Shown in pieces: positions 1,901 through 41,828 of a stretch of 64,000 nt of DNA; the first letter of the stretch is position 1; each line of letters opens with the position of its first letter. Source of the DNA: a bacterium (GTDB lineage Bacteria; Patescibacteriota; Minisyncoccia; UBA6257; Colwellbacteraceae); NCBI GenBank assembly GCA_029548485.1, contig JAKPNH010000002.1, positions 7,747 through 71,746 on the forward strand, given 5' to 3'. The position numbers were made by a program, and so were the translations under genes. The notes under the pieces were generated by a model, which was given only the letters and a program-made list of their open reading frames with translations, ran no database searches and had not been told where the DNA came from.

Positions 1901-3115
1901 ATGAAATTCCGCTACATAGCTTCCCAGCCGAACGGCAAAGTGACCGAAGGAACGGTCGAGGCCAATTCTCCGGCCCAGGTTTTGGAGTGGATGGCCACCC
2001 AGAATCTCCGGCCGATTTCCTTGAAGGCGGTGGAAGCCAAAAAAACCGGCCAGGGCCTGAAAGGGCTTTTCAGTCCGGCGGTGACCGTCGACGACCAGGT
2101 GTTTTTGACCAAATACCTGAGTTTGATGCTCAAGGTGGGAACGGATCTGTTCCACGCGATCGACATCCTGATCGCCGACTTTGACAAGCCGGTGGTCAAA
2201 TCCCTGCTCATCGAGATCAGGGACAATCTCGGCCAAGGCAAGCCGTTTTATTCGACTTTCGCCAAGTATCCCCAGTATTTTTCTTCGGTTTTCATCAACC
2301 TGGTGAGGGCCGGAGAGGCTTCCGGAAACCTTGACCGGGTTTTCGACGATTTGAGCGTCACCCTGGAAAAGGAGAAGGATCTGCGGAGCCGCATCAGATC
2401 GGCCGTCACTTATCCGATCCTGCTTTTGGTTTTCGCCTTTGTCATTCTCTTCGCCCTGGTCGCTTTCGCCCTTCCTAAAATCTCCGATTCCTTCACCCAG
2501 GGAGGAGCCGAACCGCCGGCTTTCTCGAGGATCGTCTTCGCTTTCGGAAATTTCATCGGCAGCCATATCGGCCCCATCATCTTCGTCATGGTCGCCGGCA
2601 TTGCCGGAACGTGGTTTTTCCTCGCGAAAACCCTGCCCGGGAAAAAATTCGGCATCAAGCTCATCAACCGCTTGCCCGTTGTCGGCGCGGTTTTGAAACA
2701 ATTGGCTTTGCAGCGCTTCGCTTCGACTTTCGCTTCGCTTCTCAAGGCGGGTCTTCCTATGCTCGAAGCCTTGGAAATCACCGCCAACGCCGTCGGTTCG
2801 GAAGAGCTCAAAGAGATACTTTTCCGTATTTCCCGCCAGGGCGTGGCCAAAGGCGTGACCGTCGGCGAAGCTTTCCGGCGCGAGCCTTATTTCCCGAGGG
2901 TAGTGGTCAATCTGATCGCCATTTCGGAAAAAGCCGGGCACATGGAGACGATTCTCGAGACCCTCGCCGATTTTTACGCTTCGGACGTCGACACCAGGAT
3001 CAAGGTACTGGTTTCCCTGCTTGAGCCGGCGCTTCTCGTGATGATCGGCTTGGTCGTGGCGGTCATCGCCCTCGCGGTCATCGTCCCGATCTACCAATTG
3101 GTCTCTTCGATCTAA
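1901..3115 (+). CDS. pilC: Type IV pilus inner-membrane platform protein PilC/GspF
   Basis: 404 aa. Duplicated GspF-type domains with three TM segments. Start codon immediately follows the pilB stop. Confidence 0.85.
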   Translation: MKFRYIASQPNGKVTEGTVEANSPAQVLEWMATQNLRPISLKAVEAKKTGQGLKGLFSPAVTVDDQVFLTKYLSLMLKVGTDLFHAIDILIADFDKPVVKSLLIEIRDNLGQGKPFYSTFAKYPQYFSSVFINLVRAGEASGNLDRVFDDLSVTLEKEKDLRSRIRSAVTYPILLLVFAFVILFALVAFALPKISDSFTQGGAEPPAFSRIVFAFGNFIGSHIGPIIFVMVAGIAGTWFFLAKTLPGKKFGIKLINRLPVVGAVLKQLALQRFASTFASLLKAGLPMLEALEITANAVGSEELKEILFRISRQGVAKGVTVGEAFRREPYFPRVVVNLIAISEKAGHMETILETLADFYASDVDTRIKVLVSLLEPALLVMIGLVVAVIALAVIVPIYQLVSSI

Positions 3116-3134: not shown

Positions 3135-3614
3135 ATGCCTTCCTCTAAAAATAGTCGGCCGTCGGGATTCTCGCTTGTGGAAATCGTACTCGTTTTCGCC
3201 ATGATGGCGATCATCGTGACGGCTTCAGTCAGCAATCTCTTGGGCGTGAGGAACAAATACGCCCTGGACACCACGGCCGAAAAAATAGTTTTCGATCTGC
3301 GTCTGGCCCGGGAAAACGCCCGGGGCCAGAAAGACGGAACCGCCTGGGGCGTCAGGTTGAACAACGACTCCAACGGAAAATTCTTCGAAGTTTTTTCCGG
3401 GGACAATTACGCGAGCGGCGTAAGATCTTTGCGGACGGCTCTTTCTTCGGGAGTAAAGTTCTTGACGCCGGCGGAAGGAACGAACGCCGATGTCGTTTTC
3501 GCCAAGGTCACCGGTTTGCCCGCGTCTTCTTATTCCATTACAATTGGATCAGAGAATCTTGCTTCGATCACCAAAATAATCACCATCAATGCGAACGGCA
3601 CGATCACATATTAG
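3135..3614 (+). CDS. Prepilin-type (class III signal peptide) pilin
   Basis: 11-aa leader 'MPSSKNSRPSG', then 'FSLVEIVLVFAMMAIIV' (G|FxLxE prepilin cleavage motif plus hydrophobic helix). Confidence 0.75.
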   Translation: MPSSKNSRPSGFSLVEIVLVFAMMAIIVTASVSNLLGVRNKYALDTTAEKIVFDLRLARENARGQKDGTAWGVRLNNDSNGKFFEVFSGDNYASGVRSLRTALSSGVKFLTPAEGTNADVVFAKVTGLPASSYSITIGSENLASITKIITINANGTITY

Positions 3615-4251
3615 GGGCCAATCGCTTATCGAGGCGCTGGTGGCCCTGATGGTCGGCGTTATCATGATCGGCGGCGTATCCACCGTCCTCATCCTGTCGG
3701 TGCGTTCGAGCGCGGACGCGGATCAGTTCAACAGCGCCAGCCGTTTGGCGAGCCAAGAGCTCGACAATATCAGGGTTTTCGCCGAAGCCGATTGGAACGC
3801 CATTTATCTCGCCACCAAATACGTCGATCCGGGAAATACCAACCCGCATTATCTTTCCGTGGTGAACGTCGGCGGCAAAACGAGCTTCGTCATCAACAAC
3901 GGAACGACGGCGGTGACCGTCGACAGCATCGAATACACCAAATCCTTCTATATAGAAAACGTGGAGCGCGACGAAGACGACAACATCGTCGCGAGCGGGG
4001 GAACGGACGACCCCTCGACGCAAAAAATCACCGTCAACGTCACTTGGCTCGACGACAAATCCTTGAGCGTGGTCGGTTATCTTGTCCGGTCGCGGAACGT
4101 TTCGGCTCTGTTTTCGAGCTGGGGAGCCGGTCCGGGATTCGAGGGGCCGTATACCATCCTTTCCGACGCTCCCCAAGGATTTTCTTCCTCTTCCGAAGAC
4201 ATCGATTTCGCTCCCGAGGTCGGAGGAATCACGCTTATCATCGAACAATGA
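3589..4251 (+). CDS. Prepilin-type pseudopilin / minor pilin
   Basis: 10-aa leader 'MRTARSHIRG', then 'QSLIEALVALMVGVIMIGG' (G|QSLIE motif). Overlaps the previous gene by 26 nt. Confidence 0.7.
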   Translation: MRTARSHIRGQSLIEALVALMVGVIMIGGVSTVLILSVRSSADADQFNSASRLASQELDNIRVFAEADWNAIYLATKYVDPGNTNPHYLSVVNVGGKTSFVINNGTTAVTVDSIEYTKSFYIENVERDEDDNIVASGGTDDPSTQKITVNVTWLDDKSLSVVGYLVRSRNVSALFSSWGAGPGFEGPYTILSDAPQGFSSSSEDIDFAPEVGGITLIIEQ

Positions 4252-5261
4252 GCATGACGACGAGCAAAAACAGGATTCTCTGCGGATTGGCGATATTCAT
4301 CGCGGCCGCGTTTCTTACTTTGAATGCGGCCGAAGCCGCGACCAATATCGCCGCCGACAATCCGCCGGCTTATCTTCATTGGGCTTGGAGCGACGTCGTC
4401 GGTTGGATCGATTTTTATTCGACGGACAGCGTCAACGTGACGACGACCGAGCTTCAGGGATATTCGAGATACAGCGCCGAAGGCGACGGAGCGGCTCCCT
4501 GGCAATACATATCTTTGAATTGCGCGAGCGGTCCCTCGGGATCGAGCTGCACACCCATAAGCTACAAGGTTTCCAACACCGGATCCGGAGAATTGTCCGG
4601 CTGGGCCTGGAGCGACGCCGTCGGCTGGATCAGTTTCAACTGCGAGAACGAAGGCACGAGCGGCTGCGCCGGACGCGACTATGGAGTGTCCGTCGTGAAC
4701 AGCTCCGATTACCCGGGCCAGGCGGAGCTGCAGGGATTCGCCTGGAACGACATCGCCGGCTGGATCAGTTTCAACTGCAGCAATCCCCACGTCGGCAACC
4801 CCGACGGCATTTGCGGCACAGTCGATTACAAAGTGGTGACCGGATGGAGCATCGAACCGATGGAGGGAGAAGTGATCTCGAGCACTTTCGACACCGGCGA
4901 GGCCGACGGCGCGGCCTACAACTACATTTTGTGGAAGGGCGTCACCAATTCCGGAGACGTCAGATTCCAATTCGCCACCTCGAATTGCGGCAACGGCGCC
5001 ACCAACCCCCCGGCCTGCGACCAAAACGTCGGCTGGGGCGGAGACAAGACTTCGGGCGACGGCGCTTTCCTGGGGCCGTCCGGCACCTCGGCTCCGGACG
5101 ATCTTTATTCGGGTTCGGGCCCGGACGTGCCCATACCTCTCAAAAACAGGGCGACGCACACCAATAAAAGGTACTTCCGCTACCGGGTCGTTCTTTACAG
5201 CGACATCACCCGGGCGCTTTCTCCGCGAATCGACGGAGTGATCGTCAATTGGAGCCCATAA
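4248..5261 (+). CDS. Secreted Trp/Gly-rich repeat protein inside the pilus operon (function unknown)
   Basis: ATG at 4248 gives MSMTTSKNRILCGLAIFIAAAFLTLNAAEA (signal peptide). Three copies of the motif WAWSD(V/A)VGWI(D/S)F. The track ORF 3792..5261 has an Arg-rich N-terminal extension that is not protein-like. Confidence 0.6.
   Translation: MSMTTSKNRILCGLAIFIAAAFLTLNAAEAATNIAADNPPAYLHWAWSDVVGWIDFYSTDSVNVTTTELQGYSRYSAEGDGAAPWQYISLNCASGPSGSSCTPISYKVSNTGSGELSGWAWSDAVGWISFNCENEGTSGCAGRDYGVSVVNSSDYPGQAELQGFAWNDIAGWISFNCSNPHVGNPDGICGTVDYKVVTGWSIEPMEGEVISSTFDTGEADGAAYNYILWKGVTNSGDVRFQFATSNCGNGATNPPACDQNVGWGGDKTSGDGAFLGPSGTSAPDDLYSGSGPDVPIPLKNRATHTNKRYFRYRVVLYSDITRALSPRIDGVIVNWSP
4380..4788 (+). 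repeat. Three intragenic DNA/protein repeats (GWAWSDxVGWISFNC units)
   Basis: Units at about 4380-4418, 4602-4644 and 4747-4788. The 21-mer ggctggatcagtttcaactgc occurs exactly twice (4623-4643 and 4768-4788). Confidence 0.8.
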
Positions 5262-5732
5262 ATGAAGAAGATCAATCAAAAAAATCGTAAAGGAGTGGCC
5301 ACTCTGCCGACGGTCATCATGATCGGCGGCATTATCATCGAGCTCGCCATCGCCGGAGTCGTCGTCGGCTACGCTTTCACCGAGAGCGGATCGGGCATGA
5401 GGCTTTCGGCCGAAGCGCTCTTTACCGCGCGCGCCGGTGCCGACGACGCCATATATAAGGTGATCAGGGGAGGTTATCAATCTTCGTATAACCTAATCGT
5501 TTCCGGAACGCCCGAAACTCCGAGCGAACGCAAAGCCGAAATCACCATCGAAAAGGATCCGGTTGATCTGGAAGGCCGGTTCGGCACCTGCAACGTCATC
5601 TGGGGATGCTATTTCCGGGTGCGGTCGCTCGGATCCGCCGCCAGCCGAAGAAGGAAAATAGAATCCGTGCTTTCGGTCGATCCGGCGACGCGGGAAATCA
5701 GGACCAGCTATATTAAAGAAATACCGGTTTAA
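5262..5732 (+). CDS. PilX-N-like pilus assembly / minor pilin-like protein
   Basis: Leader 'MKKINQKNRKG', then a hydrophobic helix VATLPTVIMIGGIIIELAIAGVVVG resembling the PilX N-terminal domain. No Glu at +5. Confidence 0.45.
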   Translation: MKKINQKNRKGVATLPTVIMIGGIIIELAIAGVVVGYAFTESGSGMRLSAEALFTARAGADDAIYKVIRGGYQSSYNLIVSGTPETPSERKAEITIEKDPVDLEGRFGTCNVIWGCYFRVRSLGSAASRRRKIESVLSVDPATREIRTSYIKEIPV

Positions 5733-5736
5733 CATC

Positions 5737-7272
5737 ATGGCCGAAACAACCATCAAATCGCGAAGCAAACTGGGGGCTCTCTGGAGACTGATCAACCCGT
5801 TCAAACCGGTGGGCGGCTTGAGTATCAACGATTCTTCTTTGAAATACGTCCGCATAGACGAGAACAACCGCCTGGTCAAAGCCTCTTTGAGGCTGCCGCC
5901 GGGATTGATCGAAGACGGAAAGATCAAGAACCGGGACTTGGCGAAGCAGGCGCTCGAGACTTTGAAATCCTACATCGCTCCTCCCCGCGGCGACCGGCGG
6001 ACGAACGTCATCGTTTCCCTCCAGGACAATCTGATCTATTCGAGAATTTTCAACGTTCCCAACTTGGAGGAAAAAGCTTTGGAAGAAGCGGCCGTGCTCA
6101 ATCTGCAGATGATTTCCCCGATAGATTTGAAGCAGTCCTATTACAGCTACCAGTCCGTCGGAATCACCGCGAACGGCGTCCGCCAGCTCGAGCTTCTCGG
6201 GGCTTTTATTCCGAACGGCATCGTCGACGACTGGCTTTCCCTTTTGAGGGAATCGGGATTCAGCCCGATCGCCGTGGAGTTCCAAAGCCTGAGCATGGTG
6301 AGGGCAATGGACTATCTGAAAATCACCGATCCGAAATCGACCTACGTGGCCTTGGTCGTCGCCGCCGACGGGCTTAATTTCGCCATCATCAAGAACAACA
6401 ACCTTTATTTCAATTATTTTTATTCCTGGAAATCCGTCGGTTCCGGCGGCCGGCAGATCGCTTTTACGGATCTGGAGCAAACCATTTTCACGGAAATAGA
6501 GCGCGTTCTGAATTTTGTCGGAGCGCGATTCGGCACGTCCATTTCCAGAATCTTCGTCGTGGCCGAAGGGCTCGGCGCCAAAATCGCCGCTTCGATCAAA
6601 ACACGGTTTCCCCGGCTCGACAGCCAGGAGTTTTCTTTGATGTCTTCCGCCGGATTGCCGGCGGATTGGGCGCCGGCTTTGGGATCGGCCATCAGAGGCG
6701 CCTTGCCCCGTTCGAAAGACCAATTCATCAGCTTGAACTCCATTACCGTCAGAGAAGAGTACTTTCAGGAACAGTCTTTGAGCCTGGCTTCCGCCTGGCG
6801 GAGCGCCTTTCTCGTTGTTTTGGCTTTCTTGGCGGTCCTTTACGGCGGAAGCGATTTGCTTTTGCGCCGGGTGAAAGAAGACCTTGTCGCCAGCCAAACG
6901 ATCAATTTCCCGGTGAACGAGAACCAGGAATACGCCGAACTGAAAGCCCAAGCCGACGGCTTCAACGCTTTGGTCAATTTGGTGGCGAGCGCCAAAGTCC
7001 GGGAAACGGTCATTTCGCCGTTCTTCCGGAAGATCAGGGAGCTCGCCGGAACCGACGCCACCATTTTGAGGATTTCCACCCAGCCGGTCAGCGGCACTGT
7101 CATTTTGAACGCTTCTTCTCCGTCCCTCGATATGTCGAGGAGATTTGTCGACAGACTGAAGGCCACCCCCCAGCTTCAAAGCGTCGAACAGCCGCTCGCC
7201 AATCTGGTGGTCGATCCGGACGGATCAGTGACTTTCATCGTCAGCTTCAAAGTGACGAGCCAGAATTTCTAG
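5737..7272 (+). CDS. pilM: Type IV pilus assembly protein PilM fused to PilN/PilO-like membrane segment
   Basis: 511 aa. N-terminal ~340 aa is an actin-like PilM fold. A TM helix (AFLVVLAFLAVLYGG) and a coiled periplasmic tail follow, as in PilN/PilO. Confidence 0.7.
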   Translation: MAETTIKSRSKLGALWRLINPFKPVGGLSINDSSLKYVRIDENNRLVKASLRLPPGLIEDGKIKNRDLAKQALETLKSYIAPPRGDRRTNVIVSLQDNLIYSRIFNVPNLEEKALEEAAVLNLQMISPIDLKQSYYSYQSVGITANGVRQLELLGAFIPNGIVDDWLSLLRESGFSPIAVEFQSLSMVRAMDYLKITDPKSTYVALVVAADGLNFAIIKNNNLYFNYFYSWKSVGSGGRQIAFTDLEQTIFTEIERVLNFVGARFGTSISRIFVVAEGLGAKIAASIKTRFPRLDSQEFSLMSSAGLPADWAPALGSAIRGALPRSKDQFISLNSITVREEYFQEQSLSLASAWRSAFLVVLAFLAVLYGGSDLLLRRVKEDLVASQTINFPVNENQEYAELKAQADGFNALVNLVASAKVRETVISPFFRKIRELAGTDATILRISTQPVSGTVILNASSPSLDMSRRFVDRLKATPQLQSVEQPLANLVVDPDGSVTFIVSFKVTSQNF

Positions 7273-7764
7273 GAAGACTTTGTTGAGGATCGACGCGTCG
7301 CGCTTGGAAATCGGTTTCAAAATAAAGTCCCCAGCTTGTTTTTTCTGGTTTTCTGGCCTCGCGCCGATGCGGATCCTCGCGAAGGCTCTGGTTTTGAGGC
7401 GATCGATGATCGATTGCACTCCTTTGTGTCCGGCCGAACCCCGGCCCGCGGAAAACTTGTAAGAACCGAGGACAATATCCGAATCGTCGTGGACGACAAT
7501 CAAATTTTCCGCCGGTATCCGGAAATATTTGACGGCCGCGGCCACGGCGATGCCCGAGTCGTTCATGAATCCGAGCGATTTCACGAGAATCATTCCCGGA
7601 GTTTTAATGAATTCGAACCCCTCTTTTTTGGAGGCTTGCCAATCGTTTTCTAGTTTTTCTTTTTTTGCCAGGAGATCCAAAAAAATCCTTCCCACGCTGT
7701 GATAAGTGTTCGCGTATTCTTCTCCCGGATTACCCAATCCGAAAACGATCTTTTGCTTGCCCAT
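7225..7764 (-). CDS. pth: Peptidyl-tRNA hydrolase
   Basis: Internal start MGKQKIVFGLGNPGEEY... (Pth signature GLGNPG...Y..TRHN-like, HDD). The upstream 34 codons of the track ORF overlap the lepB promoter region. Confidence 0.8.
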   Translation of the reverse strand: MGKQKIVFGLGNPGEEYANTYHSVGRIFLDLLAKKEKLENDWQASKKEGFEFIKTPGMILVKSLGFMNDSGIAVAAAVKYFRIPAENLIVVHDDSDIVLGSYKFSAGRGSAGHKGVQSIIDRLKTRAFARIRIGARPENQKKQAGDFILKPISKRDASILNKVFLEILARHFEADDESH

Positions 7765-7783
7765 CAGCGTCAATTGTATTAAA

Positions 7784-8341
7784 ATGCGACGGATGAAGCA
7801 ATTATTGGCCGTTTGGGAGTTCCTCGAAGTGGCGGCGATCGCCATTATCATCGCCTGCGCTTTCAAATTCTTGGCCCAGCCTTTTTTGGTTCAGGGCGCC
7901 AGCATGGAACCGAATTTCGACGACGGCGATTTCCTGCTCGTCGACGAAATTTCCTACCGCTTCAAAGAGCCGGAAAGGGGAGACGTGATCGTTTTCCACG
8001 CTCCGACCGAAGAGAAACAATATTACATCAAGCGGATCATCGGCCTGCCCGGAGAAACGATAGTCGTCGAAGATGGAGAGGTTTTTATAAACGGCGTCGA
8101 ACTCGAAGAGGAATACCTTCCTCAGGGAATGTCGACGAGGACTCTTCAGCAGAACGAATTCACGCTCGGCGCGAACCAATTCTTCGTTTTGGGAGACAAC
8201 CGGATCATGAGTTTCGATTCCCGGAACTGGGGCCCGCTCGATAGGGAAGAAATAGTGGGGGTGGTCCAGCTTCGGCTTTGGCCGCTTCAATTCCTGGATT
8301 CGTTGAAAGAACAAAGTTTTTACAGTGGCTACCTCCGCTAA
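7784..8341 (+). CDS. lepB: Signal peptidase I (S26)
   Basis: TM anchor, catalytic 'GASMEPN' Ser box, 'YIKRIIGLPGE' and 'GDNRIMSFDSRNWGP' boxes. Start chosen at MRRMKQ. Confidence 0.8.
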   Translation: MRRMKQLLAVWEFLEVAAIAIIIACAFKFLAQPFLVQGASMEPNFDDGDFLLVDEISYRFKEPERGDVIVFHAPTEEKQYYIKRIIGLPGETIVVEDGEVFINGVELEEEYLPQGMSTRTLQQNEFTLGANQFFVLGDNRIMSFDSRNWGPLDREEIVGVVQLRLWPLQFLDSLKEQSFYSGYLR

Positions 8342-9659
8342 AAAAACAGCCAAATCCGCGAAAACCGCCAAATTGACGGCTATTCAGGCTCCGAAAGGAA
8401 TGCACGATATTTTGCCGGAAGACGCCTGGTATTGGGAAAAGGTGGAGCAGGCGGTGAAAGACACGGCTTCGTTTTACGGATTCGACCGCATCCAAACCCC
8501 GATCCTCGAGAACGTCGATCTTTTCATAAGGAGCGTCGGCGAAGCGACCGACATCGTCGAAAAGGAAATGTATGTTTTGAAGACCCGCGGCGGCGATCAT
8601 CTGGCTTTGCGGCCGGAAATGACGGCGCCGGTGATGCGGGCTTATATCGAACGCGGATTGAGCCGCGTCAGCCAGCCGCTCAAAGTCTATTATTTCGGGC
8701 CGGCTTTCAGGCACGAAAATCCACAGGCCGGACGCTACCGCGAATTTTATCAAATGGGATTCGAGACGATCGGCGGGGAATCCGATCCGATCTATGACGC
8801 CGAAGTGATCGTCGCCGGATCGAGGTTTTTGGAATCGTTGAAGATCAAAAACCTGGCCATCCAGGTGAACAGCATCGGCTGCAAGGTCTGCCGGCCGAAT
8901 TACCGCAAAAAGCTCCAGGAATTCTACCGGAAAGAAACCGCCGTCGCCAAGAAAACCAAAGTCGTCTGCAAAGACTGCGAACGCCGCTTGGAAACGAATC
9001 CCTTGCGCCTGCTCGATTGCAAAAACGATCTTTGCGTTTCTTTGAAAGCCCAGGCGCCGAGCATTCTCGACAATCTTTGTTTCGCCTGCAGGCAGCATCT
9101 GAAAGGCGTTTTGGAATATCTGGACGAGGTTAACCTGCCTTACAGCCTGAATCCGTATCTGGTTCGCGGACTCGATTATTACAGCCGCACGGTTTTCGAG
9201 ATTTTCTCGGATCAAAGCGATTTAGCCTTGATGGGCGGCGGCCGCTACGATTATCTCGGCGAAGTCCTTTCGGGCAAGCCGATTCCGGCGGTCGGAGTGG
9301 CCGCGGGCATAGAGCGGATCATCGAGGTCGTCAAGACCAACAATCTTTTGCCTTCGCGCAAGCCTACGGACAAGGTTTTCGTCATCCACGTCGGCGATCT
9401 GGCCAAGAAAAAGGCTTTTGCCTTGATCGAGCAGTTCCGACGGGAAAACATCAGGGTTTCCGCGGCCCTCGGCAAGGATTCGCTTCAGGCCCAGCTCAAG
9501 GCGGCGGACAAAGAGGCCGCGCCTTTGAGCGTCATCATCGGCCAAAAAGAAGTCTACGAAGAAAGCGTCATCATCCGGGACATGAAAACCGGCAGCCAAG
9601 AAACCGTTCCCTTGAAGAAGATCAACGATACTCTCAAGGAAAAATTGAAAAAGCAGTAA
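8325..9659 (+). CDS. hisS: Histidyl-tRNA synthetase
   Basis: Class II aaRS motifs, 'PKGMHDILPED' N-terminal HisRS signature, and an anticodon-binding C-terminus. The true start may be a downstream TTG. Confidence 0.9.
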   Translation: MATSAKKTAKSAKTAKLTAIQAPKGMHDILPEDAWYWEKVEQAVKDTASFYGFDRIQTPILENVDLFIRSVGEATDIVEKEMYVLKTRGGDHLALRPEMTAPVMRAYIERGLSRVSQPLKVYYFGPAFRHENPQAGRYREFYQMGFETIGGESDPIYDAEVIVAGSRFLESLKIKNLAIQVNSIGCKVCRPNYRKKLQEFYRKETAVAKKTKVVCKDCERRLETNPLRLLDCKNDLCVSLKAQAPSILDNLCFACRQHLKGVLEYLDEVNLPYSLNPYLVRGLDYYSRTVFEIFSDQSDLALMGGGRYDYLGEVLSGKPIPAVGVAAGIERIIEVVKTNNLLPSRKPTDKVFVIHVGDLAKKKAFALIEQFRRENIRVSAALGKDSLQAQLKAADKEAAPLSVIIGQKEVYEESVIIRDMKTGSQETVPLKKINDTLKEKLKKQ

Positions 9660-13667: not shown

Positions 13668-15791
13668 ATGCCGCCAAAAAAGTTTCGGAATCATCTGACC
13701 AGCGTGACGAAAAGAGACGGGGAAACAACTCCTTTCGATAAAGCCAGAATCGAGCAAGCCATTTACAAAGCTTTGACCGCGACCGACCAGGGAGGAATCA
13801 AGCTGGCGAAACAATTGGCGGACAAGGTGGTGAGGATTTTGAACCGGCGCTTCAAAAAGAACGAAGCTCCGCACGTCGAGCAGATCCAGGACATCGTCGA
13901 GGAGATCCTGATGCTCGAAGACCTGACGGAAACCGCCAAGGCTTATATCCTTTACCGCGAACAGAGGAGGGCGATCAGGGAAGCGAAGACCGCCACCGAC
14001 GAAGCTTCGGAGTTGATCGACAGCTATCTCAAGGAAGTCGATTGGGAAGTGAAGGAAAACAGCAACATGGCTTTTTCCCTCCAGGGACTGAACCATTATG
14101 TCGCTTCGCACGTCACCAAGAAATATTGGTTGAACAAGATTTATCCGGTTGAAGTGAGGAAAGCCGTGGCCGACGGCGAGATCCACGTGCACGATCTCGA
14201 CATCCTCGGGCCCTATTGCTGCGGCTGGGACGTCGGAGACGTTTTGCTTCGCGGATTCGGAGGGGTTTTCGGAAAGATCCAGTCGCGTCCGGCCAAGCAC
14301 TTGCGTACGGCCTTGGGCCAGCTCGTCAATTTCTTTTACACGCTCCAAGGAGAATCCGCCGGCGCCCAGGCGTTTTCCAATTTCGATACTTATCTCGCGC
14401 CTTTCATCCGTTACGACGGCCTGACGTTCAAAGAGGTGAAGCAATGCCTTCAGGAATTCCTGTTTAATTGCAACGTGCCGACGCGCGTCGGATTCCAGAC
14501 TCCGTTTTCCAATATCTCCCTTGATCTGGTCGTGCCGAGTCACATGAAAGGCCTGCCGATAATCATCGGCGGCCAGCACAAAGAAGATGTCTACGGTTCG
14601 TTCCAGCCGGAAATGGATATCTTCAACAAAGCTCTTTGCGAGGTTTACGTCGAAGGCGACGCCACCGGCCGGGTTTTCACTTTCCCGATTCCGACTTACA
14701 ACATCACCAAGGATTTCGATTGGGACAATCCGAATTACGAAGGCGTTTGGCAGATGACCGCCAAATACGGCATTCCTTATTTCTCGAATTTCATCAATTC
14801 CGACATGAAGCCCGAAGATGCGCGCTCGATGTGCTGCCGACTCCGGCTCGACAACCGCGAACTCTACAAGCGGGGCGGAGGACTTTTCGGGGCCAATCCT
14901 TTGACCGGATCGATCGGCGTCGTCACCATCAATATGCCGCGGATCGGCTATCTCTCGAAGACCAAAAAAGAGTTTTTTGAAAGGCTTGATCGGATCATGG
15001 ATATCTCGAAAACCAGCCTGGAAATAAAAAGAAAGGCTCTGGAGGATCTAATAGAAAAAGGGCTTTATCCGTATTCGCGCTATTATCTCAGTGAAGCGAA
15101 AAAATTGAGGAATTCCTATTGGGCCAACCACTTTTCGACGATCGGGCTGATCGGAATGAACGAGGCGCTTTTGAATTTCCTGGGTGTCAGCATTTCCGAC
15201 AAGAAGGGCATCAAGTTCGCCGAGGAAGTGCTCGATTTCATGCGCGATCGATTGAGCTCTTACCAGGAAGAAACGGGGAACCTTTACAATCTCGAAGCCA
15301 CTCCGGGAGAAGGAACTTCTTACAGGCTTCCCTTGAAAGACAGGAAAGAATATCCGGATATCATCACCGCCGGAGAAAAGGATCCGTATTACACCAATTC
15401 CACCCAGCTTCCGGTCAATTACACCGACGACATTTTCGAGGCCATCGGGCTTCAAGACGGCCTGCAAACCAAGTATACCGGCGGCACGGTTTTCCACGCC
15501 TTCCTCGGGGAAGCTTTGCCGGACAGCGAGGCGGTGAAATCGACCATTAAGACCGTTTTCGGAAAATTCCGGCTGCCGTATTTCACCCTGACGCCGACTT
15601 TTTCCATTTGTCCGTCCCACGGATATATCGCCGGAAACCATCAATTTTGCCCGTATTGCGAAACCGAACAGACCTGCGAAATCTACTCGCGGGTGGTCGG
15701 CTTCCTCCGTCCGATCCAGCAATGGAACAAGGGCAAGCGCGAGGAATTCAACCAGCGGAAGATGTTCAAGGTGGCGGCCAAACAGGATTAG
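13668..15791 (+). CDS. nrdD: Anaerobic ribonucleoside-triphosphate reductase (class III)
   Basis: ATP-cone N-terminus, C-terminal zinc ribbon CxxC...CPYC, and a glycyl-radical segment. 707 aa. Confidence 0.9.
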   Translation: MPPKKFRNHLTSVTKRDGETTPFDKARIEQAIYKALTATDQGGIKLAKQLADKVVRILNRRFKKNEAPHVEQIQDIVEEILMLEDLTETAKAYILYREQRRAIREAKTATDEASELIDSYLKEVDWEVKENSNMAFSLQGLNHYVASHVTKKYWLNKIYPVEVRKAVADGEIHVHDLDILGPYCCGWDVGDVLLRGFGGVFGKIQSRPAKHLRTALGQLVNFFYTLQGESAGAQAFSNFDTYLAPFIRYDGLTFKEVKQCLQEFLFNCNVPTRVGFQTPFSNISLDLVVPSHMKGLPIIIGGQHKEDVYGSFQPEMDIFNKALCEVYVEGDATGRVFTFPIPTYNITKDFDWDNPNYEGVWQMTAKYGIPYFSNFINSDMKPEDARSMCCRLRLDNRELYKRGGGLFGANPLTGSIGVVTINMPRIGYLSKTKKEFFERLDRIMDISKTSLEIKRKALEDLIEKGLYPYSRYYLSEAKKLRNSYWANHFSTIGLIGMNEALLNFLGVSISDKKGIKFAEEVLDFMRDRLSSYQEETGNLYNLEATPGEGTSYRLPLKDRKEYPDIITAGEKDPYYTNSTQLPVNYTDDIFEAIGLQDGLQTKYTGGTVFHAFLGEALPDSEAVKSTIKTVFGKFRLPYFTLTPTFSICPSHGYIAGNHQFCPYCETEQTCEIYSRVVGFLRPIQQWNKGKREEFNQRKMFKVAAKQD

Positions 15792-15848: not shown

Positions 15849-16544
15849 ATGATTTTCGGCGGCATCCAAAAAACGACCCTGGTGGATTATCCGGGCAAGG
15901 TGGCCTGCGTTTTGTTCACTTTGGGGTGCGATTTCAAATGCCCTTGGTGCCATAATCCGGAGCTTTCTTCGGCGAATCTGATCTCGGCACAGCCGGTTAT
16001 CGATCAGTCGGAGGTATTGAGTTTTTTGGAATCTAGAAAAGGCCTGCTCCAGGGAATCTGCATAACCGGCGGAGAACCGACTATCCAGCCGGACTTGATC
16101 GATTTTGTCCGCCGGGCAAAGAAAATGGAATTTTTATTGAAGCTCGATTCGAACGGTTCGCATCCGGAAGTCTTGGAAAAACTGATCGCCGAGAAGCTAG
16201 TGGATTACGTCGCCATGGATGTCAAAAACCGGCCGGAGAAATACGAAGAAACGATCGGTATAGCGGTGGCTCCCGAGAGGATCTTGGAGAGTATCAATAT
16301 CGTGAAAACATTGTCCGATTACGAGTTCCGGACAACCGTCGTCCCCGGATTGGTTTTGGAAGAAGACATTTTGGAAATCTCCGAGCTTATCAAAGGAGCC
16401 AGGCGCTATTATCTCCAGCCTTTCCAAGGACAGAAAACGGCCGGCTTTAATTATGACAAAAAAGCCGTTTTAAAGAAGCCGGAGCTGGAAAAAATTAGGG
16501 ATAAAATCAAGGATAAATTCGATATTTGCGAAGTCAGGGGATAG
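15849..16544 (+). CDS. nrdG: Anaerobic RNR activating protein (radical SAM)
   Basis: 'CDFKCPWCHN' CxxxCxxC motif. It follows nrdD directly. Confidence 0.85.
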   Translation: MIFGGIQKTTLVDYPGKVACVLFTLGCDFKCPWCHNPELSSANLISAQPVIDQSEVLSFLESRKGLLQGICITGGEPTIQPDLIDFVRRAKKMEFLLKLDSNGSHPEVLEKLIAEKLVDYVAMDVKNRPEKYEETIGIAVAPERILESINIVKTLSDYEFRTTVVPGLVLEEDILEISELIKGARRYYLQPFQGQKTAGFNYDKKAVLKKPELEKIRDKIKDKFDICEVRG

Positions 16545-16636: not shown

Positions 16637-17047
16637 TCCGACATAGCTCAACGGTAGAGCGTCTCCCTGTGAACCGTCTTGTCCGATTGCTATAATTCAA
16701 AACAGTGGCGGGCAAGAGAATCTATGCCGACAGGCGCGAAGAATTGATCAGAACCGTCGGCATCACGCAGCCTTCTCGAGTAATCGAGATTGAATAATGG
16801 GGTGAATTCGGGGAAGTCCAATAATAGGATAATCCCGAGCCAATTCCCGCACATTGCGGGACAGGTGTAGAGACTATCTCGAAAGAGAGTAGTTCCCGCA
16901 GTTTTATATAAAACTGCGGAGGACGAAGCGCCTCATTCCGCACTCCGCAAAAACAGCGGAACGGAAATGATATAGTCCACCCTCGGTGGCAACATCGAGA
17001 TAAGTGTAAGGAGCGGGTTCCTGGTTCGAATCCAGGTGTCGGAGCCA
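16637..17047 (+). tRNA. tRNA-Asn(GUU) interrupted by a group I intron in the anticodon loop
   Basis: 5' exon 16637-16670 = TCCGACA-TA-GCTC-AACGGTA-GAGC-G-TCTCC-CTGT. 3' exon 17007-17047 = TAA-GGAGC-GGGTT-CCTGG-TTCGAAT-CCAGG-TGTCGGA-G-CCA. Spliced, the anticodon loop is CUGUUAA, discriminator is G73, and acceptor and T-arm closely resemble bacterial tRNA-Asn. A junction two nt earlier would instead give a UGU (Thr) anticodon. Confidence 0.7.
16671..17006 (+). ncRNA. Group I self-splicing intron (about 336 nt, no ORF)
   Basis: 5' splice after U, last intron nt is G. Core elements resemble the Tetrahymena/IC-type core: 'ATTGCGGGA' (P4-like), 'AGAGACTA' and 'GATATAGTCC' (P7 strands). Confidence 0.65.
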
Positions 17048-17102: not shown

Positions 17103-18152
17103 TTATTCATTGAGCCAAAACCATAATTGATTTTTAAGCTCTTGATTCAGAATGTGTGTATCAGCGTGGGATAAAACACCAAGGTATGATTGTAGTGATT
17201 GTTCAACAGTTTTATAAGGAATTCGTCCATCTTTATATTCTTTGACACGCATTTTTAGTTTTTTAAATACTCGGTTTTTAGTCTTGGTGCGAAGCTGAAG
17301 ATGGTATGGCAAAACAACGTAACCGAGAAAATCTATACCCTGCCTTAATTTGCGGATGGAAACTTTATTGGGATGGAGTTCAAGACAAAGCCTTTGTCTA
17401 AGAAATGATTTTATCGGAGAGATTATCTTTTCAAGATAATACGGGTTATCAGCCAAGATTACAAAATCGTCAGTATAGCGAAGATAATGCTTTATTTTAA
17501 GACCATGTTTTATAAATTGGTCGAATTCATTCAGATAAACGTTTGCGAAAAGCTGGGAAGTAAGATTACCAATGGGCACACCCTTCTGCTCAAAGAGGTT
17601 GGAGTATCGGGAGGAGAAACTTTCTATAACTTCCCGCAGCAGCCACATTGTGTCGGGATCCTTAATTTTTTTAGCAAGAATATTAAACAAGATATAGTGG
17701 TCAATCGTTTCAAAGAACTTCTTAATATCGCACTTCAAAGCAAAACATGGCTTTCGTACGTTACCACTTACTTTTCGAGTAAGGTCCCGCAGTGTTATTA
17801 TGCCCTTGTGGGTTCCTTTGTTAATGCGACAAGAAAAGGAATTGGAGATAAACGATTTTTCAAAGAGAGGATTAATAATTGCGAAAATCGCGTGATGCAA
17901 TACGCGATCTCGTACGGCGGCTTTGTGTATATGACGTTGTTTTGGGTCTTGAATCCAAAATGATGTATAGAGACCGTGTTTATAGCGTCTTGCCTTCAGG
18001 TCGCGGTGCAATTGAAAGATATTTTGCTCAAGCTGCCATTCGAATAATTGGACGTCATCCTTGCCCTGTTTATCACTTTTAAATTTCTCCCAGGCAGCAA
18101 AGAGGTTTTCTAATGAAATGATTTGGTCAAAAAGGTTCCTATAAGTTTTCAT
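17103..18152 (-). CDS. Diversity-generating retroelement (DGR)-type reverse transcriptase
   Basis: About 350 aa. N-terminus 'MKTYRNLFDQIISLENLFAAWEKFKSDKQGK'. Motif 4 'IGNLTSQLFANVYLNEFD' is the [I/L]GxxxSQ DGR hallmark. Motif 5 is 'YLRYTDDFVIL'. No maturase or endonuclease domains. Confidence 0.8.
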   Translation of the reverse strand: MKTYRNLFDQIISLENLFAAWEKFKSDKQGKDDVQLFEWQLEQNIFQLHRDLKARRYKHGLYTSFWIQDPKQRHIHKAAVRDRVLHHAIFAIINPLFEKSFISNSFSCRINKGTHKGIITLRDLTRKVSGNVRKPCFALKCDIKKFFETIDHYILFNILAKKIKDPDTMWLLREVIESFSSRYSNLFEQKGVPIGNLTSQLFANVYLNEFDQFIKHGLKIKHYLRYTDDFVILADNPYYLEKIISPIKSFLRQRLCLELHPNKVSIRKLRQGIDFLGYVVLPYHLQLRTKTKNRVFKKLKMRVKEYKDGRIPYKTVEQSLQSYLGVLSHADTHILNQELKNQLWFWLNE

Positions 18153-18157
18153 AATAC

Positions 18158-18508
18158 ATGGAAGAATTAGACATACCAATTTTAAAAAAGGCTTATAATC
18201 TGTATAAAGACTTTTACGGTTTCCGCAATAATGTTCCCAGGCAGGATAGATTTACTATCTGGCAACGGTGTGAAAATATAATTTTGGAGATGCTAGAAAA
18301 TATCATCTACGCAAGTCAACTGTCAAAGTCGGAAAAATTACCAGTTTTACAGAAAGCCAGTCTCGAATTAAGCTTTCTCCGTGTTTTCCTTCGTCTTTGC
18401 AAAGAAACAAAAGTATTAGATACGAGAAAGTACATCTATTTAGAGGAAGCAGTAGACGAAATAGGTAGAATGCTTGGCGGATGGATAAAATCAACTAAAG
18501 ACCATTAA
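18158..18508 (+). CDS. Avd-like four-helix-bundle protein (23S rRNA IVS protein family), DGR accessory
   Basis: 116 aa. Helical pattern 'AYNLYKDFYGF...RQDRFTIWQ...' and C-terminus '...EEAVDEIGRMLGGWIKS', typical of the Avd/IVS family. Divergent from the RT with starts 5 nt apart. Confidence 0.6.
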   Translation: MEELDIPILKKAYNLYKDFYGFRNNVPRQDRFTIWQRCENIILEMLENIIYASQLSKSEKLPVLQKASLELSFLRVFLRLCKETKVLDTRKYIYLEEAVDEIGRMLGGWIKSTKDH

Positions 18509-40467: not shown

Positions 40468-40628
40468 TCTTTGGATTCTCCATGAGCTGTCTTTGGTAAT
40501 CGCCTCCCTGCGGGACGATTAAGGTTCTGTTTCCATTATAGCCCGATTACCGCTTTAGCTGCACAAGTGGATAACTCCGGCGTTTGCCGTATCGGAAAAC
40601 AAAAGGTAAAATGAATCAAACCACATAT

Positions 40629-40760
40629 TTATCAAGAGAACGGCGAGAGTCCTGGCTCTACGACCCGTCGACAACTTGCCGGAGTTCGGCAAAGTGCCAA
40701 ATCCAGCCCTTCGAGGGAAGATAAACTTTAGCCAAAAGCCTTCTCGCGAGGCTGTTTATT
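40629..40760 (+). promoter_or_regulatory. SAM-I (S-box) riboswitch in the metK leader
   Basis: 'TTATCAAGAGAACGGCGAGAGTCCTGGCTC...AGTGCCAAATCCAGCCC...GGGAAGATAAAC' matches S-box conserved blocks. Terminator-like hairpin AGCCT-tctcgcg-AGGCT plus a T-run sits just before the ATG. Confidence 0.7.
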
Positions 40761-40766
40761 TTTATC

Positions 40767-41828
40767 ATGCCAAAAGAATTTTCCGTTTATTCGGTAGAAA
40801 GCGTCACCTCCGGCCATCCGGACAAAATTTGCGACCAGATATCCGACGCCATTCTTGACGAATGCCTCAGAGAAGACCCCGAAAGCCGCGTGGCCGTCGA
40901 ATCTTTCGGCGGACACGGTTTGATCGTCGTCGGCGGAGAAGTGACGAGCAAAGCGAAAGTCGATTACAAAAAAATCGCGCTCGAAGTATATCGCGGCATA
41001 GGTTACGAGGATGATCCGGAAGTGATCGTGAATATCGTCACCCAGTCTTCGGACATCGCCTTGGGCGTGGACACGGGCGGCGCCGGAGACCAGGGAATAA
41101 TGTACGGCTATGCCACCGACGAAACCCCGGAATTCTTGCCGAAAGGAGTGGTCCTGGCCCACAAACTTACCTTTGGCCTGGAAAGAATGAGGAAATCCGC
41201 GGAAGTCGGATGGCTCTTGCCGGACGGCAAAGCCCAGGTGACGATTTCTTCCGGCGAGACCACGGCCGTTTTGGTGAGCGCGAGCCACCAGGAAAGCGTT
41301 TCTCACGAAGAAATCCGGCAAACGCTTAAAAACAAACTGATCATTCCGATTGTCGGCGACATTCCCGACGAGCGCATACTGGTCAATCCGACCGGGAAAT
41401 TCGTCAAAGCCGGATTCGAGGCCGACACCGGGCTGACCGGCCGGAAAATCATGGTCGATACCTACGGCGGCGTCATGCCGCACGGCGGAGGATGCTTTTC
41501 CGGAAAAGACGCCACCAAAGTCGACAGGTCGGCCGCGTACATGTGCCGTTTTGCGGCCAAGAACATCGTCGCCGCCGGGCTTTCCCGGAATTGCGTCGTT
41601 TCCGTGGCTTACGCCATCGGCCGGGCCGAACCCTTGATGCTCGAAGCGACCGGAGACGACGATAAAGACCTGACGGAGGTTTTGAAGCGTCATTTCGATT
41701 TCCGTCCGAGGGCGATCATCGAGAGGCTTGGCCTTAAAAAGCCGATTTACCGCGAGACGTCCGTCTACGGGCATTTCGGAAAAGAAAATCTGCCGTGGGA
41801 GCGGATTATCGATTTGGATCGATTGTGA
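40767..41828 (+). CDS. metK: S-adenosylmethionine synthetase
   Basis: 'ESVTSGHPDKICDQISDAILD', 'GAGDQGIMYGYA' and 'GGGCFSGKDATKVDRSAAY' signatures. Confidence 0.9.
   Translation: MPKEFSVYSVESVTSGHPDKICDQISDAILDECLREDPESRVAVESFGGHGLIVVGGEVTSKAKVDYKKIALEVYRGIGYEDDPEVIVNIVTQSSDIALGVDTGGAGDQGIMYGYATDETPEFLPKGVVLAHKLTFGLERMRKSAEVGWLLPDGKAQVTISSGETTAVLVSASHQESVSHEEIRQTLKNKLIIPIVGDIPDERILVNPTGKFVKAGFEADTGLTGRKIMVDTYGGVMPHGGGCFSGKDATKVDRSAAYMCRFAAKNIVAAGLSRNCVVSVAYAIGRAEPLMLEATGDDDKDLTEVLKRHFDFRPRAIIERLGLKKPIYRETSVYGHFGKENLPWERIIDLDRL

Follow-up and report, generated by a model that had tools for sequence, protein, structure and literature searches.

A secretory tryptophan-hairpin protein encoded among type IV minor pilin genes of a Colwellbacteria genome: a candidate split-off effector of a modular pilin

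The pilus operon at the start of a 64,000-nucleotide stretch of a Colwellbacteraceae genome (contig JAKPNH010000002.1 of assembly GCA_029548485.1, positions 7,747 to 71,746; hereafter the window) encodes, just downstream of two minor prepilins, a secretory protein annotated everywhere as hypothetical (positions 4248 to 5261, plus strand; here called X). We propose that a modular minor pilin has been divided in this genome and that X, now encoded by its own gene, is its effector half; to this reading we assign a probability of roughly 0.55. That X works with the minor pilins of the type IV pilus (T4P) is considerably safer, and we regard it as highly probable; that it is displayed at the pilus tip seems probable. 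A glycan-binding or adhesin function is put forward more tentatively, as suggested by weak matches to β-sandwich and carbohydrate-binding module (CBM)-like folds, the Trp richness of the protein, and its acidity. The X open reading frame (ORF) is genuine and contains no internal stops; it encodes 337 amino acids (aa) plus a stop codon, the latter having been counted in the 338 aa of the initial annotation. In sequence, X is identical to HOF50158.1, annotated as a “hypothetical protein” in a metagenome-assembled genome of Candidatus Colwellbacteria (Parcubacteria group), which bears out the earlier guess, made from the DNA alone, that the host was an organism resembling candidate phyla radiation (CPR) members.

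The evidence that carries this reading comes from relatives in which the two halves form a single protein. Many X relatives are longer than X (about 470 to 540 aa, up to 1,533 aa) and carry at their N terminus a class III prepilin leader and a homologue of minor prepilin 2 (pilin 2; positions 3589 to 4251, plus strand, 220 aa, leader ..IRG|QSLIE), a PilV-like protein (TIGR02523, E = 5.5e-7, under the cutoff) whose gene directly precedes that of X in the window. In one such fusion, P0094, residues 10 to 229 align to residues 5 to 218 of pilin 2 (E = 9e-26), and residues 246 to 504 align to residues 44 to 337 of X (44% identity, E = 4e-66). The AlphaFold2 (AF2) model of P0094 comprises a pilin “lollipop,” formed by an α1 helix (residues 18 to 72) and a β domain whose tail is structured, followed by a linker (residues 232 to 237) with a predicted local distance difference test (pLDDT) score below 50, and then the X fold; the gene break between pilin 2 and X in the window sits at the position of this linker. 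Across 44 aligned fusions, leader residue G15 and the Q16 next to it never vary, conservation of E20 (Glu+5) is 90% or more, and several fusions are annotated by NCBI/JGI as prepilins or pseudopilins, with PF07963.

Fused and standalone forms are both common. The top 150 unbiased cluster representatives comprised 105 standalone proteins, 35 fused to a pilin, and 10 with other N-terminal extensions; among all 354 relatives fetched, 93 were pilin fused and 344 had the X domain ending 3 aa or less from the C terminus. The fused gene takes the operon slot of the split pair at three loci (L062, L076, and L084), and the conserved mature N terminus of X (TNI) is found inside fused proteins as well. 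By the gene-fusion argument, the joining of a PilV-like pilin to X implies that the pair works as one physical unit, which would lend indirect support to an association of X with the minor-pilin tip complex. Once split from the pilin, the effector would have to be exported on its own, explaining its acquired Sec/signal peptidase I (SPase I) signal. The tail of about 50 aa at the C terminus of pilin 2 (..SSWGAGPGFEGP..GGITLIIEQ) is conserved and structured in both split and fused forms, making it a plausible docking surface for X. A search for pilin 2 homologues gave 42 matches, nearly all of them tailed, so it could not discriminate whether tail and X co-occur. In the window, pilin 2 and X are separate ORFs and X has its own signal peptide, so that no modular pilin as such is encoded there. 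The X frame remains open for 456 nucleotides (nt) upstream of its ATG (3792 to 4247), over pilin 2, which we take as chance since long spurious ORFs in alternative frames are common in this GC-rich stretch; a pilin-X fusion made by frameshifting was rejected because it would leave the signal peptide buried in mid-chain.

Some fusions are considerably larger, with P0145, P0194, P0204, P0319, P0160, and P0201 measuring 665 to 1,533 aa, versus about 490 aa for the basic form, again with the pilin at the N terminus and X at the C terminus. In P0319, P0160, and P0201 the precomputed annotation includes a LamG/ConA-like domain (PF13385), while the extra regions of P0145, P0194, and P0204 were judged by eye.

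The linkage of X to T4P genes is conserved. At least 537 pattern-matched stretches of one-genome-per-species contigs encode an X relative, and the window genes were compared by tblastn with the best 80 of these at least 537 species-level loci. T4P genes lie near X in 74 of the 80. Among the 72 loci whose flank is long enough, 67 have a PilV-like pilin directly upstream of X, its start being no more than 2 kb away; pilC is found upstream in 49/55 and a PilM-like gene downstream in 51/64. The recurrent whole order is pilB-pilC-pilin-pilin-X-(156-aa gene)-pilM-pth-lepB-hisS. The synteny that the initial annotation had proposed to check across related genomes is thus widely retained, and neither of the two outcomes it had named as counting jointly against its proposal, a confident match to an unrelated domain family and a lack of conserved linkage to T4P genes, was found. 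Orphan copies of X that keep the signal peptide also occur, at L074 (8001 to 8906, beside a secreted protein and cysS/dnaB) and, between fbaA and rpsB, at L004 (8001 to 8915), the locus encoding P0074.

By its leader, X qualifies as a Sec/SPase I secretory protein with a predicted cleavage site. The signal peptide (aa 1 to 30, positions 4248 to 4337, plus strand; N terminus MSMTTSKNRILCGLAIFIAAAFLTLNAAEA|ATNI) is of the Sec type and shows the n-h-c arrangement, with K7/R9 followed by ILCGLAIFIAAAFLTL and then A28-E-A30|A31, where cleavage by SPase I is predicted (A-E-A|A-T-N-I). In 68 standalone orthologues, the −1 position is Ala in 59 and the −3 position Ala or Val in 60, before a conserved (A/S)TNI; aa 7 to 25 form a helix in the AF2 model. 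The N terminus does not contain the G/F-x-x-x-E prepilin motif, and X gave no match to N_methyl (PF07963/TIGR02532) at E ≤ 1. Judged by the missing class III leader and N_methyl match, X is not a type IV pilin or pseudopilin, in agreement with its first description as a signal-peptide protein that is not a prepilin. A lipoprotein was also considered and rejected, there being no lipobox and the leader Cys not being conserved.

The feature that drew attention to X is a Trp/Gly-rich repeat. The motif W-A-W-S/N-D-x-x-G-W-I-S/D-F occurs exactly three times in all six frames of the window, each time within X (plus strand, 4380 to 4415, WAWSDVVGWIDF; 4602 to 4637, WAWSDAVGWISF; 4737 to 4772, FAWNDIAGWISF), so that the three copies initially reported all stand and none lies elsewhere. 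At the DNA level they correspond to three 39-nt copies with 74 to 100% identity (4383 to 4421, 4605 to 4643, and 4740 to 4778). The last two share an exact repeat, partly contained in hairpin motifs 2 and 3, which had been given as a 21-mer and is in fact a 22-mer (4622 to 4643 = 4757 to 4778; 0 matches expected in 100 shuffles). A degenerate fourth copy (aa 69 to 92, positions 4452 to 4523, plus strand, LQGYSRYSAEGDGAAPWQYISLNC) reads LQGYSRYS...WQYISLNC and is recognizable from the family consensus, LxGYAxSxxGYISLDC. The full unit runs Y-x-V..G-x-L-x-G-W-A-W-S-D-x-x-G-W-I-S-F-N-C, followed by a short loop closed by a second Cys. The G and W positions of the motif are invariant or at least 90% conserved in 41 diverse homologues (41 to 78% identity), and among 202 homologues column entropy is lowest in the hairpin segments, at about 0.9 to 1.1 bits, which argues that the repeat is not a product of chance.

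The AF2 model of X, built from the family alignment, is confident and all-β (mean pLDDT, 89.8; predicted template modelling score, 0.74) and falls into two modules. Module A (aa 31 to 200, positions 4338 to 4847, plus strand) consists, according to DSSP, of four three-stranded units, each ending in the Trp-rich hairpin, which leads into a Cys-bounded loop (C92-C101, C132-C140, C177-C189). Module B (aa 201 to 337, positions 4848 to 5258, plus strand) is a β-sandwich with long ordered loops, modelled with pLDDT values of 91 to 97 in 10-residue blocks and ending in a conserved C terminus, VIVNWSP. The Cys loops have the highest entropy in the 202-homologue alignment, as opposed to the hairpins, and they and region 251 to 300 are variable and indel rich. 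Mature X is rich in Trp, Gly, Ser, Thr, and Asn (4.2% Trp), has an isoelectric point (pI) of 4.3 and a net charge of −17, and contains eight Cys in four close pairs, the three of module A and, in the second half, C247/C257; for the family as a whole the median pI is 4.46, with none above 6.0. From their spacing, the Cys pairs would be expected to form disulfides, and their conservation agrees with the finding that CPR genomes are enriched in a thiol-disulfide oxidoreductase for which a role in pilin folding has been proposed (PMC6744442). In P0033 and P0037 (about 450 aa; alignment A1, columns ~340 to 500), as well as in P0121 and P0122, a second complete module A is inserted in the β-sandwich at the C247-C257 loop. 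Such duplications suggest that module A behaves as an autonomous, duplicable unit.

Searches for known relatives were empty, in line with the initial impression that X is not a standard pilus component. X had no match in Pfam or NCBIfam, all 41 members of alignment A1 were without a Pfam match at E ≤ 10, and profile searches with A1 and A2 against PDB sequences gave no match. The aromatic G-W hairpin has what we take to be a likeness to the choline-binding repeat CW_binding_1 (PF01473), for which a profile search returned no match at E ≤ 10 in the 41 members. The Foldseek check suggested for the AF2 model found no confident known family: nothing in PDB reached E ≤ 1e-3, and the weak matches for X alone included the CBM 2c26 (E = 0.075), CBM32 (0.17), and MAM (0.22). 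With the fused P0094 model, 2c26 was matched at E = 2.7e-4 but with a template modelling (TM) score of ≤0.25, followed by the PNGase C-terminal domain (0.012) and Fbs1 (0.059); jelly-roll domains were among the weak matches too. Matches of the podovirus gp10/nozzle type (fused model versus PDB, X versus BFVD; E from 1e-6 to 1e-3) were set aside as not interpretable because of TM scores of 0.12 to 0.24 and root mean square deviations of 15 to 37 Å.

The family is very widespread. A word-indexed search retrieved 608 X relatives, all the named ones being “hypothetical proteins” of Patescibacteria/Parcubacteria lineages, including Colwell-, Wolfe-, and Paceibacteria, to which the best 80 loci add Liptonbacteria, Harrisonbacteria, and Tyrphobacter. 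An exhaustive profile search gave 8,294 clusters at 50% identity with E ≤ 1e-3 and 492 with E ≤ 1e-30. No X relatives were detected in the viral contigs of IMG/VR, and no description of the family was found in the searchable literature. We regard it as an undescribed two-module domain family that would serve, split or fused, as the effector of the Parcubacteria T4P minor-pilin set.

On this basis a sequence of events can be proposed. After export and folding, mature X would dock non-covalently on a minor-pilin priming complex, made up of the GspH-like pilin, the tailed PilV-like pilin, and a Glu5-less pilin-like protein, on PilC/PilM. Polymerization of the major pilin beneath it by PilB would then carry X through the wall at the tip of the pilus, where the Trp-hairpin module and the β-sandwich may recognize a conserved ligand, probably a carbohydrate, borne by a partner cell or by a surface, and retraction of the pilus would draw the cells together. 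A carbohydrate rather than DNA is suggested as the ligand by the acidic, Trp-rich chain, the variable Cys loops beside invariant hairpins, and the lectin/CBM-like fold neighbors. Of the roles initially floated for X, “pilus tip or adhesin” is the one best supported, given the fusion of the X domain to the upstream minor pilin in many relatives, while nothing specific favors a cell-wall-spanning accessory.

Known pilus systems offer several parallels. PilY1/PilC, the tip adhesin of type IVa pili in Pseudomonas, Neisseria, and Myxococcus, resembles X in being a Sec-signal non-pilin encoded among minor-pilin genes. We know of no report of a covalent pilin fusion, as found here for X, in the case of PilY1. 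X is about one third of its size, and differs from it in not having the PilY1/Neisseria_PilC β-propeller (IPR008707), with no Pfam match (X and 41 homologues, E ≤ 10) and no PilY1 among the Foldseek PDB matches. Both are large and all-β, and both are presumed to be carried at the tip by the minor-pilin complex (PMC8179133, PMC11623550). Modular pilins have themselves been proposed to be tip exposed, with PilY1 as their non-pilin analogue (PMC8179133). In function X may therefore be likened to PilY1 or to a modular-pilin effector while belonging to neither family, being analogous rather than homologous to PilY1.

The design of the X fusions is that of the modular minor pilins of Streptococcus sanguinis, PilB (vWA) and PilC (lectin), which likewise combine a class III leader, a small pilin, a short linker, and a bulky C-terminal effector (PMC8179133). 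Saccharibacteria TM7x has two modular pilins, the jelly-roll PilX1 and the β-propeller PilX2; the former is akin to X in having a β-sandwich effector that domain databases do not contain and whose fold neighbors are of lectin, hydrolase, and capsid-like kinds, and host glycans matter for attachment of these bacteria (PMC11623550). Unlike these, the window and most species have two genes, the effector carrying its own Sec signal, and the X domain is of a family different from the known modular-pilin effectors. CofB of the CFA/III pilus of enterotoxigenic Escherichia coli has a pilin domain plus two β-strand-rich domains, the second an H-type lectin (PMC6048534), and is also described as having a flexible linker, a β-repeat domain, and a β-sandwich domain (PMC8179133), an order that matches the pilin, linker, module A (repeats), and module B (sandwich) of a fused X relative. 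The same system provides, in CofJ, a precedent for a separately secreted, operon-encoded protein that is anchored on the tip minor pilin (PMC6048534; compare TcpB/TcpF). The CofB system is, in contrast, a type IVb pilus of a diderm, X has no sequence similarity to any PDB chain, and CofB was not among the Foldseek matches listed. X also fills the slot between the GspI/PilV-like pilin and the Glu5-less GspK/PilX-like gene. This slot is usually held by a J/W-type pilin with an extra β domain, and the JGI label of one fused X relative is “PulJ.” X differs from GspJ/PilW-type core minor pilins in being without a pilin N terminus and a GspJ/PilW profile match, and the parallel is one of gene position only.

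Several observations weigh against X being a tip-borne, ligand-binding effector of pilin 2. In the P0094 model, the pilin and X halves are connected through the low-confidence linker. The flanks available at 6 of the 80 loci are devoid of T4P genes, 3 of the 6 having short flanks or short contigs; neither L074, with full flanks, nor the locus of P0074 has T4P genes within 8 kb. Distance-matrix co-variation, after subtraction of the species signal, was significant in mirror-tree analysis and not specific to X and pilin 2 (r = 0.47), the X-PilM pair being no weaker (r = 0.60; pilin 2-PilM, r = 0.51). The lectin-like fold matches are all weak (for X, E ≥ 0.027 and TM ≤ 0.37). Last, in the same 34 genomes conservation is higher for X (median identity of 41% and 0.61 bits per residue) than for the minor pilins and PilM (31 to 35% and about 0.45), an edge that is somewhat inflated since the loci were picked by similarity to X. 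Such high conservation would be unlike that of a host-specific adhesin.

These points bear most directly on an alternative in which X acts solely as a structural cap or priming factor, starting assembly or blocking full retraction, as in the assembly role of PilY1, and binds no ligand; host specificity would then come from other modules, such as the LamG-type inserts, or from other pilins. X being the best-conserved extracytoplasmic gene of the operon accords with this, as do its placement always at the extreme C terminus, ending in NWSP, the addition of separate LamG/ConA-like modules in fusions where the pilin + X unit stays constant, and a residual co-variation that is highest with PilM. 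Set against it are the variable, indel-rich Cys loops and 251 to 300 region, as expected of a binding surface, the duplication of module A in some relatives, which suits avidity more than a fixed structural fit, and the orphan copies away from pilus genes. We consider a purely structural role unlikely, though by no means negligible; such a role, or else a conserved ligand, would be a serious alternative to a host-specific adhesin.

It is improbable that X is a secreted cargo or bridging protein in the manner of CofJ or TcpF, released with the pilus machinery and either free or transiently bound to the tip pilin. X is an operon-encoded, Sec-exported non-pilin beside minor pilins, its C terminus has no membrane or wall anchor, and CofJ, likewise operon encoded and secreted, binds the tip minor pilin (PMC6048534). 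The covalent pilin fusion in 35 of 150 clusters is, however, incompatible with release in those organisms, and the presence of the mature TNI N terminus within fusions implies that this segment belongs to the fold and is not a free anchoring peptide. We give little credence to X as the DNA receptor of a competence-type pilus, capturing DNA at the tip in the manner of ComZ/ComP for nucleotide-auxotrophic CPR cells: genes for T4P and competence are common across CPR, with DNA uptake as a proposed role (PMC6744442), and binding of DNA by modules at the tip is known from other systems (discussed in PMC8179133), but the strongly negative charge of mature X, the acidic pI throughout the family, and the failure to detect a DNA-binding domain with Pfam in X and 41 homologues all speak against it. 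Least credible is a pilus-independent surface or cell-wall protein whose operon place is merely inherited gene order; orphan copies among housekeeping genes and the equally syntenic, unrelated pth-lepB-hisS would fit, yet passive synteny does not explain the repeated fusion with the adjacent prepilin or the translational-coupling overlap of the two genes.

If X is instead an effector detached from its pilin carrier, it would form with the PilV-like pilin a naturally occurring “split modular pilin” that reassembles outside the cell. A further step, which we offer as speculative and somewhat doubtful, is that this holds together with the hairpins and sandwich being an undescribed lectin fold, the conserved host- or surface-recognition head of the main Parcubacteria T4P; in that case a very large group of uncultured episymbionts would attach primarily by means of X. 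A central question about Patescibacteria (CPR) is how they locate their hosts and keep hold of them; type IV pili are the leading candidates, and experimental work on CPR host-attachment pili has so far been in Saccharibacteria (PMC11623550). The X family, very widespread and “hypothetical” in every annotation, is a constant extracellular part of the Parcubacteria minor-pilin set and as such is a candidate for how these ultrasmall bacteria grip other cells. Its split and fused forms are a natural experiment on the attachment of pilus effector modules, a complex of X with the tail of the PilV-like pilin at the pilus tip is a testable model, and the X domain clearly merits consideration as a new Pfam family.

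The genes around X form a tightly packed plus-strand row at the start of the window, from pilB through the PilM-like gene, followed by pth, lepB, and hisS. The row opens with pilB, the assembly ATPase (194 to 1900; Pfam T2SSE, E = 3e-118; MshEN, E = 5e-14), pilC, the platform protein (1901 to 3115; two copies of T2SSF, E = 3e-52), and minor prepilin 1, a GspH/FimU-like protein of 159 aa (3135 to 3614; leader ...RPSG|FSLVE; N_methyl, E = 7e-4; TIGR01708 GspH, E = 3.7e-7, under the curated cutoff). After pilin 2 and X come a 156-aa pilin-like protein (5262 to 5732) and the PilM-like protein of 511 aa (5737 to 7272; PilM_2, E = 1.5e-5, under the cutoff; TIGR01175, E = 3.5e-5), the C-terminal half of which is membrane spanning and which had initially been called pilMNO. 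The operon order first given, pilB-pilC-pilin-pilin-X-pilMNO, is correct in outline and had overlooked the 156-aa gene between X and pilM. The stop codon of pilin 2 (4249 to 4251) overlaps the X start (ATGA), and the 156-aa gene begins right after the X stop. Scans of the row with consensus promoter and terminator patterns found no excess of sites over shuffled sequence, which, together with the overlapping and abutting genes, leads us to read the row as one operon.

The 156-aa protein begins K-G|V-A-T-L-P-x-V-I-M-I-G-G, a pattern kept in 36 loci with the family form (K/R)-G|(V/Q/I)-A-A/T-L-P-x-(I/V)-L-L-I-G-G-I, and has a hydrophobic helix with no Glu at +5; a conserved S-x-E-A-L-x-A-A-x-A-G-x-x-D-A helix follows. 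Profile searches with 20 orthologues gave no Pfam or PDB match. Going by the N-terminal pattern, the protein may resemble a tip pilin of the GspK/PilX type. At locus L002, a gene for an additional 128-aa protein that has a membrane helix at its N terminus (8921 to 9307) lies between X and the 156-aa-type gene.

Downstream of the pilus operon, pth (minus strand), lepB, and hisS occupy positions 7225 to 9659, an arrangement that follows the operon in most relatives. The product of lepB, signal peptidase I, would process X, and its retention two genes downstream may be mere inherited gene order.

Farther into the window, a full-length match to the Rfam group I intron (RF00028, 58.5 bits; 16754 to 16999, plus strand) lies just downstream of nrdD (13668 to 15791) and nrdG (15849 to 16544) in a low-GC stretch (0.39 to 0.42, 16 to 20 kb), with no rRNA, tRNA, or interrupted coding gene recognized around it. 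The same low-GC island holds a reverse transcriptase ORF (17103 to 18179, minus strand; RVT_1, E = 3e-22). A diversity-generating retroelement that would diversify X by means of this reverse transcriptase was rejected because no template/variable repeat pair was present anywhere in the window. An S-adenosylmethionine (SAM) riboswitch (RF00162, 57.9 bits; 40626 to 40727, plus strand) is located immediately upstream of the ORF at 40767 to 41828.

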